Shown here in pieces: positions 3,410 to 28,732 of a DNA stretch of 35,120 nt. Position numbers and translations under genes: made by a program. Positions within the stretch are counted from its first letter, which is position 1. Each line of letters begins with the position of its first letter. The notes beneath the pieces were generated by a model. That model did no database searches. It was not told the origin of the DNA and worked only from the letters and a program-made list of their open reading frames with translations. Origin of the DNA: Spirochaetaceae bacterium (GTDB lineage: Bacteria > Spirochaetota > Spirochaetia > Treponematales > Breznakiellaceae). The stretch is taken from assembly GCA_031284645.1 (NCBI GenBank), contig JAITXS010000045.1, forward strand, positions 1-35,120. The letters are read 5' to 3'.

Positions 3410-4633
3410 TCAGGGAAAAAGCCGGACGCAGCGCTGTTGAAGCAGTAAATCCGCTAAAACAAGAGCCGTCATCGCCTCCACCACACTGACCGCACGGGGA
3501 CAGACACAAATATCATGCCTGCCTTTCACACAAAGCTCCCTCAGCACACCCGAACGATCAACCGTCCTTTGTTGTTTTGAAATTGAAGGAACCGGCTTAA
3601 AGGCCACCCGAAACTCAAGCGGCGCCCCGTTTGAAATACCACCCAAGACACCACCCGCTCTATTGGAAGCAAAGAGAAGCTGCGGAACATGGGGGGGGAG
3701 CACATTATCCGCCTTGGGGAAGAGGCCCCCTTCGCGGCTCCCCCTGTCTCCGAACCCCCGCGGGCCAAAGCCCGCGGGGTGTTCTCCGCCACCCCCACTT
3801 ATTTTTTTGCTGTTTGTCAGATCACAGGGCAGCGGCGTATCGTTGCTTTCAGAGCCCAAAAGCCGCGCCGAGGCAAAACCCGAACCAAACTCAATTCCTT
3901 TTGCCGCGCCAAGAGAGAGCATGGCCCCGGCAATAAGCGCATCAATTTTTTCAAAAACAGGCTCCCCCAGACCGGCGGGAAGCCCAGTTACCGTGCAGGC
4001 CACAATACCGCCTGCGCTTTCCCCTGCCAGCCGCAATTCGGCGATTTTTTCCGTTATACACGCAGCAACAGCGGCAGAAGGCACATGCAGATTGTTTTTT
4101 TCAGCTTCATCCAGGTCAAAATCAGCCTGCCCCTGTCCGGGTGCCGTGATACCGGCGATTTCAGCAGTCCATGCGCGGATAAAAATATTGTTTTCGGCAA
4201 GCAGGCGTTTTGCGACTGCTCCTGCCGCCACTCGTCCGGCAGTTTCCCGGGCAGATGATCTCCCGCCGCCGTTATGATCGCGTCGGCCGTATTTTGCTTC
4301 GTATGTCCAGTCTGCGTGTCCGGGTCTGTAGATATCTTTTAATTCATCGTAATCTCTGCTGTTATGGGACTTATTCCTGATTAAAATCGCGATAGGCGTA
4401 CCAAGGGTCTTTCCTTCAAATACACCGGAAAGTATCTCTGCATTATCGTCTTCTTTCCTTGTAGTCGAAGCTCCCCCTGAGCCCGGCCTGCGCCGTGCAA
4501 GCTCGCTCAAAATATCCGTAAGCTCAAGCTCAAGTCCGGCCGGACAGCCGTCCACAACGCAGCCTGTCGCAGGCCCGTGAGACTCTCCGAATGTTGTTAC
4601 TTTAAAAATCTTGCCAAAGGTATTACCGGACAC
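3410..4633 (-). CDS. aroC: Chorismate synthase, carrying an extra ~45-aa Gly/Pro/Arg-rich insertion
   Basis: MSGNTFGKIFKVTTFGESHG, GGGRSSARETAGRVAAGA, NRAGGVLGGISNG and KGRHDICVCPRA are chorismate synthase signatures. The protein is 407 aa against about 360 typical. The excess lies between SNDT and SNRAGG. Confidence 0.95.
   Translation of the reverse strand: MSGNTFGKIFKVTTFGESHGPATGCVVDGCPAGLELELTDILSELARRRPGSGGASTTRKEDDNAEILSGVFEGKTLGTPIAILIRNKSHNSRDYDELKDIYRPGHADWTYEAKYGRRDHNGGGRSSARETAGRVAAGAVAKRLLAENNIFIRAWTAEIAGITAPGQGQADFDLDEAEKNNLHVPSAAVAACITEKIAELRLAGESAGGIVACTVTGLPAGLGEPVFEKIDALIAGAMLSLGAAKGIEFGSGFASARLLGSESNDTPLPCDLTNSKKISGGGGEHPAGFGPRGFGDRGSREGGLFPKADNVLPPHVPQLLFASNRAGGVLGGISNGAPLEFRVAFKPVPSISKQQRTVDRSGVLRELCVKGRHDICVCPRAVSVVEAMTALVLADLLLQQRCVRLFP
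3716..3798. repeat. Family-2 GC-rich element, copy embedded in-frame in aroC
   Basis: CTTCGCGGCTCCCCCTGTCTCCGAAC ... GTGTTCTCCGCCACCCCCAC matches the other two copies (13667-13750 reverse complement, 17957-18022). The central palindrome CCCCGCGGGC-CAAA-GCCCGCGGGG (3756-3779) is perfect. Confidence 0.8.
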
Positions 4634-4761: not shown

Positions 4762-5634
4762 TTATTCAAATAATTCTAATTGTCCGTTTTTATTTTTCTC
4801 TTCAAACGTACTCATATATTTAAATAATTTATCGTTACCATACACTATATTATTTTCACGGCAGGTTTTAGTAAATATTTTCATAAGCCCTTCATTATTA
4901 TCACTGGTGAGTATATAACTGTTTCCATATCTATGCTGATATTTTTGTTTTAATCCCGGAAAATGTCTATCGAGTTTTTCATAAAAATATTCCCTGCTTC
5001 CTTCCCGCAATGTTAACCCCATTTCAAAACATATAATACCATATACCTTTGCTTCTATACAATAATTTAATATCCCCCGAAGATTTTCTTCCGTATCATT
5101 GATAAAAGGCAATATGGGACCTAACCATACTATTGTCTGAATTCCATTATCCCGAAGTATTTTTAATGTTTCAAACCTTTCTTTTGTTGTTGATACATTT
5201 TGTTCAATTATTTTACATAAAGATTCGTCAAAAGTTGTAAGAGTTATTTCTACGATACATTTTGCGTTATTGTTAATTTTTATTAATAAATCTAAATCTT
5301 TTAATATTAACGTTGACTTTGTTTGAATAGCTAAACCAAAACCGTGTTTTTCGATAATTTGCAAGCAGTCTCTTGTAATATTTAAATTTTCACTTACAGG
5401 CATATACGGATCGCTCATTGCCCCGGTACCAATCATGCATTTCTTTCGTTTCGTTTGTATTTTTTGTTCCAATAGCCGGCGCGCATTTATTTTTATCTCA
5501 ATATCTTCAAAATCATGATCCATGCTATAACATTTACTTCTTGCATCGCAATAAATACAGCCATGAATACATCCGCGGCTGATATTCATGCCATTCTTTG
5601 GTGATAAGATACCTTTAACTTCTTTAAAGTGCAT
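4762..5634 (-). CDS. Radical SAM protein, SplB/COG1533-like (SPL family)
   Basis: CIHGCIYC is a CxxxCxxC cluster motif near the N-terminus. The 290-aa length and layout are typical of the SPL-type radical SAM family. The gene is markedly more AT-rich than its neighbours. Confidence 0.7.
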   Translation of the reverse strand: MHFKEVKGILSPKNGMNISRGCIHGCIYCDARSKCYSMDHDFEDIEIKINARRLLEQKIQTKRKKCMIGTGAMSDPYMPVSENLNITRDCLQIIEKHGFGLAIQTKSTLILKDLDLLIKINNNAKCIVEITLTTFDESLCKIIEQNVSTTKERFETLKILRDNGIQTIVWLGPILPFINDTEENLRGILNYCIEAKVYGIICFEMGLTLREGSREYFYEKLDRHFPGLKQKYQHRYGNSYILTSDNNEGLMKIFTKTCRENNIVYGNDKLFKYMSTFEEKNKNGQLELFE

Positions 5635-11411: not shown

Positions 11412-12353
11412 ATGGATATAAAAAAAATCGCGGAAAATTATATTCCCCTTATTTCATTTATTGTGTTTCTCAGTATTCTCAGCTACCTCTTTTTTTTACG
11501 TCCCCCGATTATCCTTGTTAGTGATGTGTATGTTCACGAGATTTACGGAGAACACGAGGAACGGATGCGGAATTTTGCAAGCTCGTTTAGCGTTTTTCGT
11601 CAAATTAAAGTGATTCGTGTTCCGGAAGATGTGGACAGCTATAGCATGGCGGAAATAATTCAGAGGAATAACGCTTCGCCTTTTTGTGTTTTTTTCCCGT
11701 TCCGTTATCAAGAGATTGCAGAAATTTATCGCGATGAAATCACGCAAAATGGTAATAAGACGACAAAGATATTTGTTATGGCAAATAAAGAGAAGGTTCC
11801 GTCACATGCGGAGCGTATTATCTATACGGTATCCGATGCGGAACGGGATTACTATAGAGCAGGGTACTGCGCGGCGATCTTGTCGAGAGATGAGGGGGCC
11901 TTAAACAATGCACAGCGCAACAGTGAGCGGTACATTGCTTTTATCTATGATCGGGATATAAACGACAGGGGGAAATCGGCTTTTGAAGACGGACTTCTTG
12001 CCGGCGGATTTTCGGGAAAATCACGCTTTAGTTTTAACCAGGAGAGTCTTAGGCCAAATGATTTAGCCTGCGTGGTGGTAGACGGGCCTGCCGATCTCTT
12101 TTTTCAATCTCCTACAGATGTACCGGTTATACTCTTTACATGGCTTGAAAACGAGGATTATTTCCCGAACAATATAAAAATAAGGATTGACGATTCGCCT
12201 TATACGCTTATCTGTCGGACGCTTAAATTGCCGAAAAAAAGCCTGATAGACGGGGCGGTTTTAAAAATCCCTGCTGATTTTCATATCCTTAAAAAAACTC
12301 TTGATAATAAAAAACTAATCAATGAATTGTCGGCAAGAAGGGTAATTGGGTAA
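11412..12353 (+). CDS. Hypothetical membrane-anchored protein
   Basis: 313-aa ORF with an N-terminal hydrophobic helix (YIPLISFIVFLSILSYLFFL). It starts 12 nt after era. The last ~5 codons and the stop are repeat-derived (see findings). Confidence 0.55.
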   Translation: MDIKKIAENYIPLISFIVFLSILSYLFFLRPPIILVSDVYVHEIYGEHEERMRNFASSFSVFRQIKVIRVPEDVDSYSMAEIIQRNNASPFCVFFPFRYQEIAEIYRDEITQNGNKTTKIFVMANKEKVPSHAERIIYTVSDAERDYYRAGYCAAILSRDEGALNNAQRNSERYIAFIYDRDINDRGKSAFEDGLLAGGFSGKSRFSFNQESLRPNDLACVVVDGPADLFFQSPTDVPVILFTWLENEDYFPNNIKIRIDDSPYTLICRTLKLPKKSLIDGAVLKIPADFHILKKTLDNKKLINELSARRVIG

Positions 12354-13095
12354 AGGGTTTAGGGTCTAAATAGGGTAAAGGGTTTGGTAATACCAGAAAG
12401 CCCCTACCCTAACTTAGGGTTTTGGGGAAAGGGTAGAGGGTCTGGGTTTTATCAGAAATACTCTACCCTATACCCCGAACCCTATAACCCTTGCTTCGGG
12501 AGGATGGGTGGAGTTCCGATCCCTCGAATACTCTGCACCCTTTCCCCCTTTTTTACGTGCAATTTTGTAAAATACACTTTTTTGCAGACCCATTAAAGCA
12601 AAAACCACGCGGTGCACTATAAATAAAGCATCATGGCTATAAACAAAAAATATATAATAGGGTTTTGGGTAAAGGGTAATAGGGTTTTGATTTTACCAGA
12701 AATCCTGTACCATACCCAACTTTTCTAAACCTTTGCTGCGGGATGAGGGGTAGAGTTCTGATTTCTCCAATACCCTATTAAGAAGGGTAATTGGGGCAAG
12801 GGTTATAGGGTCTAGCAATATCAGATATATTCCACGCAACCCGAAACCCGAAGCAGGGCGATAGGGGCAAGGGGGCAGATCAGCAGTTATCTTTTATTAC
12901 TATACCCTCTACCCCGAACCCTACTACCCTTATTTAGGGTAATTGGGTTATAGGGTAAAGGGTTTTGGTTTTATCAGGAAGTTACTACCCGCATCCTAAC
13001 TCCCCTAACCCTTTGCTTCGGGTATTAGGTAAAGATGTCTGATCATTTCAATACCCCAAACCCTAGACCCTACTACCCTTCTTTAGGGTTTGGGG
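12354..13095. repeat. Family-1 GGGT/ACCC repeat array, about five units with one unique 110-bp interruption (12546-12657)
   Basis: Approximate unit boundaries are 12337-12414, 12415-12545, 12658-12785, 12786-12935 and 12936-13084. The linkers ACCAGAAAG/ATCAGAAAT, CCTTTGCTTCGGG and CTGATCA recur in the same order. Confidence 0.85.
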
Positions 13096-13449
13096 AGCAC
13101 GGAACGCCTTGAAAAAGCGCTTGGAAAAGCCGTAAACTGGTGTATAGACCATGATATTTTAAAAGATTTTCTGGAAGAAAACTCTACGGAGGTTAACAAT
13201 ATGCTATTTACCGAATGGAATTGGGACGATGCTCTGGAAGTTGCCCGCGAGGAGGGCATTGAGCAAGGTCGTGGAGAAGGTTTGGAAGAAGGCCGTGGAG
13301 AGGGCAGAGAAGAAGGTATTGAAGTGGGTATTGACAGAGGCAGAGAAGAAGGCATTGATAGCTTGTGTGAACTGCTTGAACAGGGATACACTCCCAAAGA
13401 AGCTAGGGAAATGCTGAAAAATAAAAGTAGGGTTTTGGGTAAAGGGTAG
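13090..13449 (+). pseudogene. Orphan C-terminal fragment resembling Rpn/YhgA-like PD-(D/E)XK putative transposase proteins
   Basis: There is no credible start: the TTG at 13090 lies inside a repeat unit. The sequence NMLFTEWNWDDALEVAREEGIEQGRGEGLEEGRGEGREEGIEVGIDRGREEGIDSLCELLEQGYTPKEAREML resembles, from memory, the repetitive C-terminus of that family. The nuclease N-terminal domain is absent. The ORF tail and stop (13428-13449) are repeat sequence. Confidence 0.4.
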
Positions 13450-13660
13450 AGGGTTTAGACTTTATCAGTAAGCCTGCACCATTCCCAACTCTTCTAAACC
13501 TTTACTTTCGGGTATGGGGTCTAAATAGGGTCATGGGTATAGGGTTTAGATTTTACCAGAAAGTTACTACCCGCATCCTAACTCCCCTAACCCTTTGCTT
13601 CGGGTATTAGGTAAAGATGTCTGATCACTCCAAAACCCAATACCCAGAACCCTATGACCC
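13428..13660. repeat. Family-1 GGGT/ACCC repeat, about two units
   Basis: Same linker order as above. Bases 13561-13627 are identical to 12979-13045 (67 bp). The unit 13520-13660 has terminal inverted repeats GGGTCATGGGTATAGGGT / ACCCAGAACCCTATGACCC. Confidence 0.85.
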
Positions 13661-13666
13661 TTCACT

Positions 13667-13750
13667 GTGGGGGTAGCGGAGAAGACCGGAGGCAAGCGTG
13701 AGCGAAGCCGAGGACTTCGGAGCGAGGGGGAGCCGCGAAAAAAATTCCCC
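13667..13750. repeat. Family-2 GC-rich element, intergenic copy abutting the family-1 array
   Basis: GTGGGGGTAGCGGAGAAGACC (21 nt) and CTTCGGAGCGAGGGGGAG (18 nt) are identical to the reverse complement of 17957-18022. CCGCGAA plus GGGGA/TCCCC flanks are shared with the aroC copy. Confidence 0.8.
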
Positions 13751-13792: not shown

Positions 13793-14551
13793 TCAAATTT
13801 CCGTTAAAATTTCCGTATGGTCATCAAAGATAGCAATCGTATGCTCCCAGTGCGCGGAAATTTTTCTGTCTGCGGTAACGACTGTCCACTCATCGTCAAG
13901 TATTTCAACATCACCGGAACCCAGATTGATCATGGGCTCAATGGCAAGCACCATACCGCCGCGCATACGGGGATTGGGCCCCTCCCGCGGACAGTTTGAT
14001 ACCGAAGGATCTTCGTGTACATAAAAGCCGACGCCGTGCCCGCAGAATTGACTTACCACGCCGTAATGAAAAGCTTTTGCGTGCGATTCAACGGCGCTGC
14101 CTATCTTGTGCAGTCTATCTCCGGCTTTTGCCGCGGCAATCCCTTTATACAAACATTCGCGGGTTACTTTGTTTAATTGGGATGCTTCCTCGCTGACCCG
14201 GCCTATTTCGTATGTTTCGGATTTATCACTGAAAAAGCCGTCAAGGACGATGCCGCTGTCAATGCCGACAAGGTCTCCGTCTCGGAGTTTTCTTTTTGAC
14301 GGTATGCCGTGAATAACCTCTTCGTTTATTGAAATACAAAGTGCGCCGGGGAAAGGGTTATGCTTCGGGCCATAGCCTAAAAACGCAGGTGCCCCGCCCG
14401 CTTTCTTTATCCAATCACAGGCCCACCTGTCAAGCTCAATCGTCTCAAGGCCGCTTTGCAGGAGAGGCCCCATCTCCTTGTACAGTGCCGCCAGAAGTTT
14501 GCATGACTTTCTTATGCCGTCAATTTGTCTTGTATTCTTGTAATATATCAT
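13793..14551 (-). CDS. map: Type I methionine aminopeptidase
   Basis: FLGYG...FPGALCISINEEVIHGIP, DLVGIDSG, FCGHGVG and LAIEPMIN match. The ATG at 14551 is preferred over the TTG at 14569 because it follows the upstream stop (14553-14555) by one nucleotide. Confidence 0.93.
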   Translation of the reverse strand: MIYYKNTRQIDGIRKSCKLLAALYKEMGPLLQSGLETIELDRWACDWIKKAGGAPAFLGYGPKHNPFPGALCISINEEVIHGIPSKRKLRDGDLVGIDSGIVLDGFFSDKSETYEIGRVSEEASQLNKVTRECLYKGIAAAKAGDRLHKIGSAVESHAKAFHYGVVSQFCGHGVGFYVHEDPSVSNCPREGPNPRMRGGMVLAIEPMINLGSGDVEILDDEWTVVTADRKISAHWEHTIAIFDDHTEILTEI

Positions 14552-14552
14552 G

Positions 14553-15482
14553 TTATGTATACTCCGCAATTTTATAGACTGTTGTATCCGCGCTGATAAG
14601 CGGACTTTGATATGAAAAAAATATCTCCCCCGATACCGGTGAATATATCTTGTTTACCACACTACCGTCATACGGGTCAAGGATCTTCGCGATAAGATCC
14701 CCCTTTCGCACAAAATCGCTTGCCTTGTTGATCTTGTAAAGAAAACCGGCAGCCCCGCTTGTGATCGTCGTTAATTCTTTTTCTTGAATCAGACAGCTGT
14801 CATAGCCGTTGTGCAGTTTATAATGAATAAAATTATTCTTGCTTAGAAAGCGCAGAATGGAATTCCATGTGAGTTTTGCCGATTCTTTGTTGACCGAAGC
14901 AGTTTCTCCGGAATAGATTGAAAAAGCTTTTGTACCGAAAATCTGCCAATTATAATGTAACAGGGTCGTATCAAACGAGGAAGGCGTGCGCAAGAGTATA
15001 TACGGCAGAGCAAAAGTCCGTGCGCTCTCCACATCCTCGTAGCCGGTAGTCAGTATCCGCACATGCGGAATAAAGTCCCCGTGTAAATAAAACGAGGCAA
15101 GCTGTATCCCGTATTTATAATCGCGTACAAGATTAAAAAGCGCCGCCGCGATACGCTGGGTTGTTTCTCCCTTATCGTATCCGGGGAACATCCGGTTAAT
15201 ATCAGTATTGTCCATAGCCCAAAATCGTTTACCGATATTAATCGAGTAGTGATTGACGCAGGGAATCACCAGAATTTCATGACCGCTCTCTATAAGGCCC
15301 GCCTCTTCAATTTGAATTAAATTTTTTACGATTTGAGAGCAGATAAATTGTTGTTGAAATTCATCGCCTCGTATCGCGCCGACAATCGCGACAGAAGGCT
15401 CTCCGCTTCCAAAACGGAAGCCCTGAATTTTAAAACTGCTTCTATACGGCGATAAGAGCTCAAAGAGCGTTTCTTTTTTCAC
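14553..15482 (-). CDS. AstE/AspA (succinylglutamate desuccinylase/aspartoacylase, COG3608 predicted deacylase) family paralog B, first zinc His replaced by Arg
   Basis: Paralogous to the upstream gene over its full length. The motif reads VGAIRGDEFQQQ where the family has HG[ND]E. The C-terminal barrel is present (KGDLIAKILDPYDGSVVNKIYSPVSGEIFF). The GTG start overlaps the upstream TGA (GTGA). Confidence 0.75.
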   Translation of the reverse strand: MKKETLFELLSPYRSSFKIQGFRFGSGEPSVAIVGAIRGDEFQQQFICSQIVKNLIQIEEAGLIESGHEILVIPCVNHYSINIGKRFWAMDNTDINRMFPGYDKGETTQRIAAALFNLVRDYKYGIQLASFYLHGDFIPHVRILTTGYEDVESARTFALPYILLRTPSSFDTTLLHYNWQIFGTKAFSIYSGETASVNKESAKLTWNSILRFLSKNNFIHYKLHNGYDSCLIQEKELTTITSGAAGFLYKINKASDFVRKGDLIAKILDPYDGSVVNKIYSPVSGEIFFSYQSPLISADTTVYKIAEYT

Positions 15483-17265: not shown

Positions 17266-17934
17266 TTACAGTATAAGTAAACAGGACAGTAAATACAAGA
17301 GATGGTCTTTTGCCGCCCCGGGCAGAGCCAAGGCTTCCTTTAATTCAAGAAATTTCCCCATATCAAAAACATCTGTATCCTTGAGCACCCTCTGTTCAAG
17401 ACGCCGGAACATATTTTGCAGACGGGGAAACGAATAATCAAAACGAATATGCAGATCAAGCTCTTCAAGAAACCAGCCTGCTTTAATCATATTACGAGTT
17501 TCACTCTGAAAAATACGTTCATCGACCGCGCCCCAAAAAGCCATAAGACTATCGGTAAGCTCTTGCAGCTCATTCACATCAGAGCCCTTAGCCGCACATT
17601 CTTCCATTTTGCCAAGAGCAAGCTGCACATAAGAAAAAGTCTCGCTCTTAATCAACTCGCGAACCACAATCGCATTGTTAAACGCATTATGCAAAGCAGA
17701 ACGCAGCGAAACCCCGTCGTCTTTACTAAAAAGATAACGCAGCATAAAATCTTCCGCCGAAGAATACTTATCCGCAACACCAAGCTTTTCGCAAAAAACA
17801 GTATAATCCTCAGGCTCTTCTATCAGCATATCCCGGAATTTCCTGAAAAAATGGAGAACCGCATAGACCCGCTGCGTATAACGCCCAAGCCAAAAAAGAC
17901 ATTCAGCCTTGTTTTTTGAAATTTTATCAGACAT
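17266..17934 (-). CDS. Alpha-E domain protein (COG2307 type)
   Basis: ECLFWLGRYTQRVYAVLHFFRKF resembles the alpha-E N-terminal helix. The start is placed at the ATG at 17934 (MSDKISK, GAGGGG SD-like sequence upstream). The 49-codon extension to 18081 in the ORF track runs through a family-2 repeat. Confidence 0.7.
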   Translation of the reverse strand: MSDKISKNKAECLFWLGRYTQRVYAVLHFFRKFRDMLIEEPEDYTVFCEKLGVADKYSSAEDFMLRYLFSKDDGVSLRSALHNAFNNAIVVRELIKSETFSYVQLALGKMEECAAKGSDVNELQELTDSLMAFWGAVDERIFQSETRNMIKAGWFLEELDLHIRFDYSFPRLQNMFRRLEQRVLKDTDVFDMGKFLELKEALALPGAAKDHLLYLLSCLLIL

Positions 17935-17956
17935 AAAAACCCCCCTCATAAACATA

Positions 17957-18022
17957 AGGGGGAAGTCTCCCCCTCGCTCCGAAGCCCGCCGCTTCGCGGT
18001 CGGGTCTTCTCCGCTACCCCCA
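17957..18022. repeat. Family-2 GC-rich element, copy inside the ATP-grasp operon (between the ATP-grasp and alpha-E genes)
   Basis: CTCCCCCTCGCTCCGAAG ... GGTCTTCTCCGCTACCCCCAC. There is a flanking AGGGGGA-AGTC-TCCCCCT hairpin (17957-17974) and a GGGGC-TTC-GCCCC hairpin (18029-18041). Confidence 0.8.
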
Positions 18023-18105
18023 CTCCTCGGGGCTTCGCCCCTAAAACCCCACGTCCGACAAAGATAAAAATCCTCAGGCAAAAGCCCCTTTACCGCAGAT
18101 CAAAA

Positions 18106-19431
18106 TCATAAGTCCGCTTGTCTTTCTACCCACGTATCTTTAAAACCGCCACCCTGTGAGGAATTAACCACATAAGAGCTGGCATCACGAGCAAAACGAG
18201 TTAAGCCGCTTGGCCAAACCAGCACTTCATCTCCGTACAAAACAAAAGCGCGAAGATCCGCTTTGCGCTGCGCATTTAAGTCACCGTCAATAATATCCAT
18301 ATCACGAAATTGGATGACTTCCTGTGCAATCCAACGCCGGGGCTCCCGCTCAATAAGTTTTTCTATCTCGGTAAGACGATCCGGCGGCAAATCCTTACCG
18401 AACATAACACCGTAACCCCCTGCCTCGGCCACGTCTTTTATAACCAAATCTTTGATATTCGCGAGTATATATTTTTTGTCCTCTTCGTAATAGGGAAGGT
18501 AGGTCGGCGCGTTTTTCAACAGGGCTTTTTCTCCCAGATAATATTCGATCATCTTGGGAACAAAATAGCAAAGCCCCTTGTCATCGGCAATACCGTTACC
18601 AACTGCGTTCATAATCGCGACATTACCCTGCCGGTATGCCTGCATGATATTCGGCACGCCCAGCAGAGAGGAGGGGTCAAAAACAAGCGGGTCAAGATAC
18701 TCATCAGCAATGCGCCGGTATATGACTCCGACACGCTCGCGCTCGTTAAAAAGCCCCTTGTAGTAAACCATACCGTTATCAACAATAAGATCTCCGGGAA
18801 AAGCCAAAGTGGCCCCGGTTTTTTCAGCAAGGAACGAATGCTCAAAAAATGCCGAATTGTAACGGCCCGGCGTAAGAATAACGGCAAGGCCGTTCCCCTC
18901 GTTTAAGTAATCAAAAATCCGTGATAAAAGCAGAGGATAGTTGCGGTTATCCTCAATTTTATTATGGGCGAAGGTCTCGGGAGAGACCTTTCGGGTGATG
19001 GTCCGGGCAATAATCGGATAAGACGCGCCGGAGGGAATTCTGATATTATCTTCCAGTACAATCCACGAGCCGTCTTTTTCCTGAACCAGATCTATGCCGG
19101 AAATATGATTGTAAATTTTTTGCGCCGGAATAATCCCCTCGCATTGAGGAAGATACGCCTTTGAAGAATAGATAAATTCTTCGGGAATAAGCTTGTCTTT
19201 GACAATACGTTTTTCATTGTAGATATCCAAAAGAAACGCATTAAGCGCTTTTGCCCTTTGAATCAGTCCCTTTTCAAGAAATGCCCATTCCACCGCCGGT
19301 ATTACACGCGGAATCGGATCAAAAGGGAAGAGCTGCTCTTTAAACTCACCGTTTTTATAAATACCGAAACGAACGCCGCAGCGGTCAAGCCATTTATTTA
19401 CGGCATACTGTTGTTCCAATAACGCTTTCAT
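18106..19431 (-). CDS. Circularly permuted type-2 ATP-grasp protein (COG2308 type amidoligase)
   Basis: WIVLEDNIRIPSGASYPI, VILTPGRYNSAFFEHSFLAEKTG, VIYRRIADEYLDPLVF and NAVGNGIADDKGLCYFVPKMIEYYLGE match the conserved blocks of this family. Confidence 0.85.
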   Translation of the reverse strand: MKALLEQQYAVNKWLDRCGVRFGIYKNGEFKEQLFPFDPIPRVIPAVEWAFLEKGLIQRAKALNAFLLDIYNEKRIVKDKLIPEEFIYSSKAYLPQCEGIIPAQKIYNHISGIDLVQEKDGSWIVLEDNIRIPSGASYPIIARTITRKVSPETFAHNKIEDNRNYPLLLSRIFDYLNEGNGLAVILTPGRYNSAFFEHSFLAEKTGATLAFPGDLIVDNGMVYYKGLFNERERVGVIYRRIADEYLDPLVFDPSSLLGVPNIMQAYRQGNVAIMNAVGNGIADDKGLCYFVPKMIEYYLGEKALLKNAPTYLPYYEEDKKYILANIKDLVIKDVAEAGGYGVMFGKDLPPDRLTEIEKLIEREPRRWIAQEVIQFRDMDIIDGDLNAQRKADLRAFVLYGDEVLVWPSGLTRFARDASSYVVNSSQGGGFKDTWVERQADL

Positions 19432-19635: not shown

Positions 19636-19733
19636 AAAGGAGTTATGATGAAGAGAACTATGATTTATTAACCAATCAATACCCCGAAAGGTTACATCCG
19701 GTAGCTCCCATTTTAAAATATACCCCCAAAAAG

Positions 19734-20010
19734 AGGGGTAATGGGGTCTAGGGTAGTAGGGTCTAGGGTTGGGGTATTGAAATGATTAGACATCTTTACC
19801 TCATACCCGAAGCAAAGGGTTAGGAGCGTTAAGGATGGGGCAGGGAATTTCTCGTAAAATCTCTACCCCAAACCCAAGGAGAAGGGTGATTGAGTTCTGG
19901 GTAGGGGCTTTCTGATAAAACCAAGACCCCATACCCTTTACCCATGACCCTCTACCCTCTACCCTCTACCCTCTACCCTCTACCCTCTACCCAATTACCC
20001 AAAACCCTAA
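19734..20010. repeat. Family-1 GGGT/ACCC repeat, about two units in inverted orientation, in a divergent promoter region
   Basis: Bases 19773-19838 are the near-identical reverse complement of the conserved core at 12992-13055. The linkers CCCGAAGCAAAGGG and CTTTCTGATAAAA are present. Confidence 0.85.
19948..19992. repeat. Perfect heptanucleotide tandem repeat (CCCTCTA)x6 plus CCC
   Basis: Six exact copies were counted from 19948 to 19989. They are embedded in a run of 12 C3-4 tracts spaced 3-5 nt apart (19927-20007). Confidence 0.95.
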
Positions 20011-20112
20011 GGTAGATATGTTTCAAATATGAATCGGAGGATAAACGCATAGAGTTTATCCTGCTCGTGAGCACTTGTCTAAGAAAAAGAATTACCCGAT
20101 AATATTTCTATA

Positions 20113-28552: not shown

Positions 28553-28560
28553 AACCTGGC

Positions 28561-28732
28561 TTAGGGTTTGGGGTATTGGGGCTGGGGTATAGTTCTTACC
28601 AGAAAGTCCCTACCCTATACCCAACTCCCCTTGACCCTTGCTTCGGGGTAGAAGGGCGGGGTCAAGAGTGGCGAATGTCTATCACTCCCCTACCCTATAC
28701 CCTCATTTAGGGTCATGGGGTAGGGTAGGGGT
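28561..28732. repeat. Family-1 GGGT/ACCC repeat, one unit plus a partial G-arm
   Basis: TTAGGGTTTGGGGTATTGGGGCTGGGG - TTACCAGAAAG - TCCCTACCCTATACCC - CCCTTGCTTCGGGG - ... ATGTCTATCA - CTCCCCTACCCTATACCC, then GGGTCATGGGGTAGGGTAGGGG. Confidence 0.85.

Follow-up and report, generated by a model that had tools for sequence, protein, structure and literature searches.

Rickettsia palindromic elements (RPEs), reportedly dealt with by Ogata et al. in 2000, are one of the described systems with which the DNA considered here has to be compared. Others are the repetitive extragenic palindromic (REP) sequences of proteobacteria together with BIMEs and REPINs, which are mobilised by RAYT Y1 transposases and in which the REP stem is the conserved part, the attC sites of integrons, recognised by structure rather than by sequence, and the rut site of lambda tR1 (rutA-boxB-rutB), composed of two C-rich, G-poor single-stranded tracts placed around a hairpin of unimportant sequence. 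According to a review, RPEs measure ~100-150 bp, are conserved over their whole length, carry a conserved peptide per family and belong to Rickettsia only, residing both between genes and in frame inside unrelated housekeeping genes, where the peptide is compatible with the fold (PMC10969869). [quoted passage not shown] Here, we describe a hairpin repeat from a contig of 35,120 nt assigned to a Spirochaetaceae bacterium (JAITXS010000045.1, assembly GCA_031284645.1), this whole stretch being hereafter called the window; one copy of the repeat lies in frame inside aroC, the gene of chorismate synthase. An earlier note, based on the letters of the window, had proposed that a GC-rich palindromic element was inserted there with RPE-like behaviour. 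The best reading of the data is that the segment represents one copy of a small dispersed hairpin-repeat family of Spirochaetota (Treponema and relatives), which is apparently undescribed, as full-text literature searches for spirochaete repeats and for the sequences of the arms returned no description. With a probability of roughly 0.7, we consider it a REP-like dispersed hairpin repeat copied at the DNA level, one copy of which became fixed and translated in a tolerant disordered loop of AroC.

A repeat inside chorismate synthase

The aroC gene occupies positions 3410-4633 of the minus strand as an intact open reading frame (ORF) for 407 aa, its identity following from Pfam (PF01264, E 2.8e-127, profile positions 1-327 of 327, i.e. 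full length), from chorismate synthases in the PDB matched with E down to 4.5e-98, from the structural model considered below and from the gene order aroC-recO, common to the window and the closest AroC homologue, P0002. When compared with the Pseudomonas aeruginosa enzyme (5z9a), query residues 1-269 correspond to chain residues 1-264 and query residues 321-401 to chain residues 267-347, so that about 50 residues are left without counterpart. The distance between the SNDT and SNRAGG blocks is 56 residues, exactly as the earlier note had it; its conclusion that an extra segment is present stands, but the whole 56-residue stretch cannot be counted as inserted, because relatives already carry a loop of ~15-20 residues at this place and the net gain versus the closest orthologues is therefore ~33 aa. 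Aligning the loop with 48 homologues within the frame common to them (ND-x-P-x-P ... LPPGVP-x-L) places the net in-frame insertion of 99 nt at 3713-3811 (minus strand), residues 275-307, SKKISGGGGEHPAGFGPRGFGDRGSREGGLFPK, with boundaries uncertain by a few nucleotides and P0002 taken as the reference. It sits directly before the conserved N-x-A-G-G-x-x-G-G-I-S block. The segment is absent from all 119 other AroC homologues listed (termite-gut-type Treponema, Spirochaetaceae metagenome-assembled genomes and T. primitia, the best being 69% identical) and hence is not a loop of lineage-wide occurrence.

The loop itself varies greatly in length, the distance from GxGF to N-x-A-G-G ranging from 22 to 74 residues in the listed homologues (usually 34-40) and reaching 70 in the window protein. 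Unrelated insertions of 15-35 residues occupy the same loop in P0025, P0026, P0033, P0016 and P0073 of termite-gut spirochaetes, and AroC of T. primitia ZAS-2 exhibits a local internal duplication there, which together define the loop as an indel “hotspot”; P0043 was also recorded among the homologues with independent insertions or duplication in the loop. The search for a conserved peptide module within the insert led to rejection of this idea, since the 36-aa insert peptide has no match among 1.84 billion representative proteins. The segment in aroC is GC-rich and open in all six frames; the lack of stops is a consequence of this composition and gives no evidence of selection, so that the informative point is the net length divisible by three. 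In an AlphaFold2 model of the window protein (predicted template modelling (TM) score 0.84), the predicted local distance difference test falls below 50 only at residues 51-56 and 273-310, the insert being modelled as coil, and Foldseek comparison with solved chorismate synthases gave target-normalised TM-scores of 0.84-0.94. Accordingly, the prediction for the insert is a disordered loop, the chorismate synthase fold being otherwise normal. All of the ~85 columns invariant in an alignment of 49 AroC sequences (A3) are kept by the window protein.

Two further copies are located between genes. The copy in aroC (3728-3803, plus strand; 67.3 bits with covariance model R1) has arms at 3738-3754 and 3783-3798 and a hairpin at 3752-3784 composed of GAAC, a 10-bp stem and a CAAA loop, with T3780 bulged. 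The perfect stem pointed out previously, CCCCGCGGGC-CAAA-GCCCGCGGGG, is found both in sequence and in fold. As the C-rich strand is on plus, aroC mRNA bears the G-rich one, and the hairpin is computed at -29.9 kcal/mol. The second copy (13662-13742, minus strand) has arms at 13716-13732 and 13667-13682 separated by an imperfect centre of 33 nt, and lies downstream of the methionine aminopeptidase gene (13793-14569, minus strand), at a distance of 51 nt. The third (17957-18028, plus strand; arms 17967-17983 and 18008-18023) is in the 171-nt spacer between the gene of circularly permuted ATP-grasp (18106-19431, minus strand) and the alpha-E gene. In agreement with the earlier description of the repeat in aroC and at two intergenic sites, both its blocks are present at these three places only, in the same order and orientation: TCTTCTCCGCYACCCCCAC, allowing ≤3 mismatches, has 3 matches in the window versus 0.01 expected from shuffled sequence, and CTCCCCCTSKCTCCGAA has 3 versus 0.21. 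The exact 21-nt and 18-nt blocks said to be common to the two intergenic copies are indeed there. Significance of the similarity was assessed using covariance model R2, trained only on 16 copies of the family from other genomes, which scores the second, third and aroC copies at 65.9, 65.3 and 55.2 bits, respectively (E from 1e-11 to 1e-9; 1.4e-9 for aroC), the next hit in the window having 7 bits. Covariance model scanning revealed no degenerate copies in the 35-kb window. The copies contain 64-71% GC, against 44% for the contig.

The third copy had been reported as open in the same frame as that in aroC (SGGSGEDP), with the alpha-E ORF extended through it, and translation demonstrates that this is the case. 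The 5′ extension at 17935-18081 (minus strand) is spurious judging from this translation and from the Pfam Alpha-E match, which begins at residue 59 of the 271-aa ORF; the true start is likely the ATG at 17934, having the Shine-Dalgarno-like run GAGGGGGG just upstream. The same run is part of a 10-bp hairpin, after which comes a stretch of T (17940-17963), the structure being situated just before the alpha-E start in an apparent operon.

Coding residence is not limited to aroC. In a Treponema metagenome-assembled genome (locus L114), a copy at 5078-5133 (minus strand) is in frame within the N-terminal region of a secreted hypothetical protein. It lies 50 nt downstream of an ATG with a strong GGGGGAG Shine-Dalgarno sequence and upstream of the hydrophobic core of the signal peptide, with no alternative canonical start between element and core; the NCBI annotation starts this protein (P0241, 448 aa) 80 residues late. 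The orthologue P0242 (L147, 1541-1571) is 72% identical and agrees with the L114 gene in its Shine-Dalgarno sequence, ATG and signal peptide, being short by exactly 45 nt, namely CGCTCC-GAAA-hairpin-TTTC-TCCGCTACCCC, i.e. the inner arms and the hairpin, while GCTGCTCCCCCT followed by CA is retained. An interpretation of L147 as an empty target site was rejected, as it keeps 12-14 nt identical to the left arm, which is not expected by chance. Rather, L147 seems to have lost an internal segment in frame, by a deletion reaching from one C5 run to the other and spanning the hairpin, which is a classic substrate for slippage. To judge by the reading frame, the element is translated in L114 whether L147 is a deletion or an empty site. 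Being in frame inside genes thus characterises the family and is no “one-off” of aroC, and the RPE-like behaviour suggested earlier, understood as in-frame presence in unrelated genes at tolerant sites, applies to both the AroC loop and the secreted protein of L114.

Anatomy and dispersal of the family

Nineteen distinct, non-redundant full copies, three from the window and 16 from elsewhere, and nearly all located on contigs of spirochaetes, were aligned (A2). Each is composed of two C-rich and almost invariant arms, (GCKG)CTCCCCCTCGCTCCGAA and TTCTCCGCTACCCCCAC, contributing 24 invariant columns, and of a centre of 10-39 nt whose sequence differs from copy to copy. The arms are C-rich on the same strand and are mutually non-complementary. 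The centre had been described as variable and always self-complementary, and all 19 centres do form hairpins, closed by GAAN/N'TTC; this combination is the most unusual feature of the family. A single base (G or T) is left unpaired or mismatched in every hairpin; it belongs to the 3′ side and is four pairs up from the foot of the stem. Covariation in the stem is evident from 90.8% of cells being paired versus 40-57% when partner columns are slid by 1-3 positions, from changes on both sides in 7 of the 10 stem pairs, and from the closing N/N' pair, which is G-C in 10 copies, A-U in six and C-G in three. Element length is 60-85 nt in the window, 43-85 nt in most copies and ~140-160 nt in those with a long centre, centres spanning 10-125 nt over the family as a whole. 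Thus, L041 (7327-7465, minus strand) has a long hairpin of ~100 nt, the centre in L132 reaches 125 nt, and that of L020 (4742-4880, minus strand) is enlarged by some four tandem repeats of 18 nt (GGCCTATTGCCGCTCG-like).

Additional pairing was considered and rejected. Hairpins joining the arms with each other or with flanking G runs came out as outer G-run hairpins in the copy at 18 kb and in L023 and L127, and are inconsistent; an outer GCGG/CCGC helix shows no covariation. Of Rfam families, only a tRNA elsewhere in the window reaches the gathering score, and permissive search (E up to 10) with two copies and a locus carrying an Rpn-like gene yielded nothing credible. Origin from tRNA-like sequences or rRNA was dismissed too, Paenibacillus matches being chance hits to antisense 23S rRNA without the left arm.

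Scanning of a genome collection with the right arm gave 119 loci, most of them chance matches (our own estimate is ~140 chance matches of a 17-mer in 596 Gb). A left-arm-like match lies upstream in 11 of these 119, comprising nine compact elements and the two with long centres, L020 and L041. Ten of the 11 belong to contigs bearing the label Treponema, Treponematales, Spirochaetaceae, Rectinemataceae or Breznakiella homolactica, and the remaining one comes from a termite-gut contig assigned by binning to Helicobacteraceae (L101, 3668-3739, plus strand; 49% GC over the fetched stretch). This occurrence outside Spirochaetota could reflect mis-binning or transfer. Host contigs range from 36 to 72% GC. 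Most copies are intergenic, being located just 3′ of a gene or between codirectional genes; the neighbors are unrelated (enolase/VIT1, NAPRTase, xanthine-type permease, EF-G, MatE, peptidase, DUF6326 and VanY), and orientation is mixed, with the C-rich strand in the sense transcript for ~10 copies and the G-rich one for 6-7. The window has 3 copies per 35 kb, and none was found when the 42 kb surrounding aroC were scanned in T. primitia ZAS-2 and in a further relative. In assembly ERZ795054, copies at two loci are identical at 53 of 54 positions, hairpin included, and contig L127 bears a tandem pair with identical hairpins, so copies have been propagated whole. A phage or plasmid vector was rejected, because viral contigs, phage records and plasmid records contain no match to the element.

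Mode of spread and competing explanations

Dispersal to unrelated loci, the near-identical copies of ERZ795054 and the contrast in GC content all suggest that the element is, or was, mobile. Copies would be added to new loci at the DNA level in a way dependent on the hairpin and the arms and not by inverted-repeat transposition; an enzyme recognising single-stranded hairpins, or template switching or recombination at C5 runs, are the candidate agents. One copy may then have entered aroC in a loop already variable in length among related species, where a GC-rich insert of 99 nt without stop codon in any frame would have preserved the reading frame, and the ribosome would read it as a disordered loop of 33 residues rich in Gly, Pro and Arg, tolerated by the enzyme.

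Several observations weigh against this scenario. Terminal inverted repeats are lacking, complementarity being confined to GAAN/N'TTC at the foot of the hairpin, and the flanks of 22 copies contain no direct repeats indicative of target-site duplication (what they do have is a left-hand GCKG that is conserved and, on the other side, mostly T). Neither a transposase nor an integrase was seen in the window, where only housekeeping genes were found. As the three window copies have three unrelated hairpins, they do not stem from a recent burst of a single master copy. Members of the family are rarely met with in public data, as a metagenome scan requiring exact matches to both arms gave nine further loci. 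The aroC insertion is known from a single metagenome-assembled contig, which accounts for both of its database entries, and since there is no empty aroC site and the closest AroC is 69% identical, its boundaries and the direction of the event are deduced indirectly. Finally, near-invariance of the arms over hosts of 36-72% GC, and at sites with ~22% diverged flanks, suggests selection for function better than it suggests a selfish, decaying repeat.

The last point opens the way to the strongest alternative, according to which the element is a selected cis-acting nucleic acid motif, such as a protein-binding site, a hairpin for mRNA ends or stability, or a Rho-loading site comparable with lambda tR1, and not selfish DNA, the aroC copy being an accidental, tolerated duplicate. 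Besides the constancy of the arms, it would account for the compensatory changes in the otherwise varying hairpin, for arms kept at consensus in orthologous or paralogous sites despite diverged flanks or a replaced centre (as in L123 compared with L132), and for the prevalence of copies just downstream of genes or between codirectional genes. The mixed use of strands obeys no rule, however, no gene family is common to the neighborhoods, Rfam gives no match even at E up to 10, and two copies are part of coding regions, in which a signal of this sort would be undesirable. We hold this alternative to be possible and distinctly less probable than a REP-like repeat; the two overlap, REP elements being both. 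Invariance of the arms may as well reflect a recognition requirement of the mobilising machinery as a host function.

Placement of the insert immediately before the N-x-A-G-G-x-x-G-G-I-S block raises the question of whether it is real but disables or changes AroC, the gene then decaying or serving a new role. This is improbable considering the full-length ORF, the retention of every column invariant in 49 homologues, the high confidence of the modelled core and the presence of inserts up to ~35 residues in the same loop of other species; the insert-bearing protein is presumably made and active, and the insert presumably neutral for the enzyme. Still less credible is an assembly artefact in the form of a repeat-induced chimera, for which the occurrence in one contig and the reputation of repeats as classic causes of misassembly may be adduced: the flanks are two halves of one gene in the same frame and with the gene order of relatives, while a chimera would normally join different loci, and the aroC copy has its own hairpin and arm variants, so it was not copied from other window copies during assembly. 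Growth of the loop in place by slippage or low-complexity expansion, with chance likeness to intergenic copies, could invoke the indel hotspot with its unrelated inserts of 15-35 residues and the ZAS-2 duplication, but is effectively refuted by pattern counts far above shuffled expectation and by the R2 match (55 bits, E 1.4e-9) covering both arms, their order and the hairpin.

The copied hairpin repeat thus remains the preferred reading, and genes adjoining some copies were inspected for a possible agent. A gene of the Rpn/YhgA-like type (Transposase_31, TIGR01784; PD-(D/E)XK) is bracketed by copies of the same orientation in L123 (1336-1391 and 2472-2546) and in L132 (2268-2427 and 3455-3582), and the 125-nt long hairpin of the latter recurs on the downstream side of the gene. 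This association is attractive as a lead but was not taken for the mechanism, because the element brackets two of eight related Rpn loci and is absent from six. Around another Rpn-like gene, in L137, a direct repeat of ~200 nt (420-622 and 1590-1792) occurs without the hairpin element, probably reflecting tandem Rpn gene copies; this gene adjoins VapBC, PIN and MazEF toxin-antitoxin genes.

The window harbors also a second, unrelated repeat family, in which heptad-like units of GGGTA/TACCC surround the core CTTTCTGGTA...TACCAGAAAG, and which is found at 1173-1328, 12328-13660, 19724-20022 and 28555-28650. It includes a non-coding cluster of 1.3 kb adjoined by the second copy of the hairpin element, two segments of 51 nt that form a perfect inverted pair (1192-1242 and 12362-12412) and, at 19947-19992, a tandem run of ACCCTCT. 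A small ORF (13090-13449, plus strand; 119 aa) with four-residue (E/Q)G repeats is positioned between 142-nt direct repeats (12940-13081 and 13522-13663) that are 85% identical; its assignment as an Rpn fragment was rejected, as the likeness to Rpn C-terminal repeats is not significant (E 0.13).

Insertion in frame is ordinary in principle, being known in Rickettsia, and we found no spirochaete report of it. The case described here would mean that the conversion of small repeats into translated portions of essential enzymes is not restricted to Rickettsia and can take place also in free-living or gut-symbiotic spirochaetes, and it marks the AroC loop as a site tolerant to insertions. Fixed unpaired arms combined with a free hairpin over hosts of 36-72% GC point to dedicated recognition machinery or function, and Breznakiella homolactica offers a cultivable carrier. 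If Rpn-family proteins or another enzyme did act on the element, it would be the first defined DNA substrate for the putative Transposase_31 family. In practical terms, gene prediction is led astray by the element, examples being the alpha-E ORF extension and the late start call in L114.

Relation to known elements

The spirochaete element resembles RPEs as a small palindromic dispersed repeat, found between genes and in frame inside them, where it adds a peptide. It differs in host, in being mostly 43-85 nt long, in conservation of the arms only and in having no conserved peptide; given the length and the peptide ascribed to RPEs in the source cited above, it is unlikely to be a relative of them. 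It is not a classical MITE, having neither the terminal inverted repeats nor the target-site duplications by which MITEs are defined. With lambda tR1 it shares, by analogy, C-rich tracts around a dispensable hairpin, whereas tR1 is not a repeat family and the orientation of the spirochaete copies is mixed.

Parallels are found also among REP sequences. Like them, the element is a short GC-rich imperfect palindrome, mostly extragenic near 3′ ends of genes, which occurs in either orientation, lacks terminal inverted repeats and target duplications and has a consensus common to several genera; its consensus G-rich arm contains GTAG. In contrast to REP, conservation concerns the unpaired flanks and leaves the stem free, and the host phylum is another one; no RAYT (Y1 HUH) gene was seen in the loci scanned, the scan having covered loci and not whole genomes. 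With attC sites, it has in common conserved short ends, a variable self-complementary centre and unpaired, extrahelical bases to one side of the stem. Alignment A2 contains none of the complementary R''/R' cores of attC (RYYYAAC/GTTRRRY), pairing there being limited to GAAN/N'TTC and not extending into the arms, and the window provides no integrase or cassette-array context. It is conceivable, albeit at rather long odds, that the recognised unit consists of the one-bulge hairpin plus two fixed, mutually non-complementary C-rich single-stranded arms, the sequence of the hairpin being free, and so represents a new class of structure-recognised elements. The recogniser of such a class could be a mobilising nuclease or recombinase or a host factor, and its logic could be closer to that of attC and REP than to that of transposon ends.

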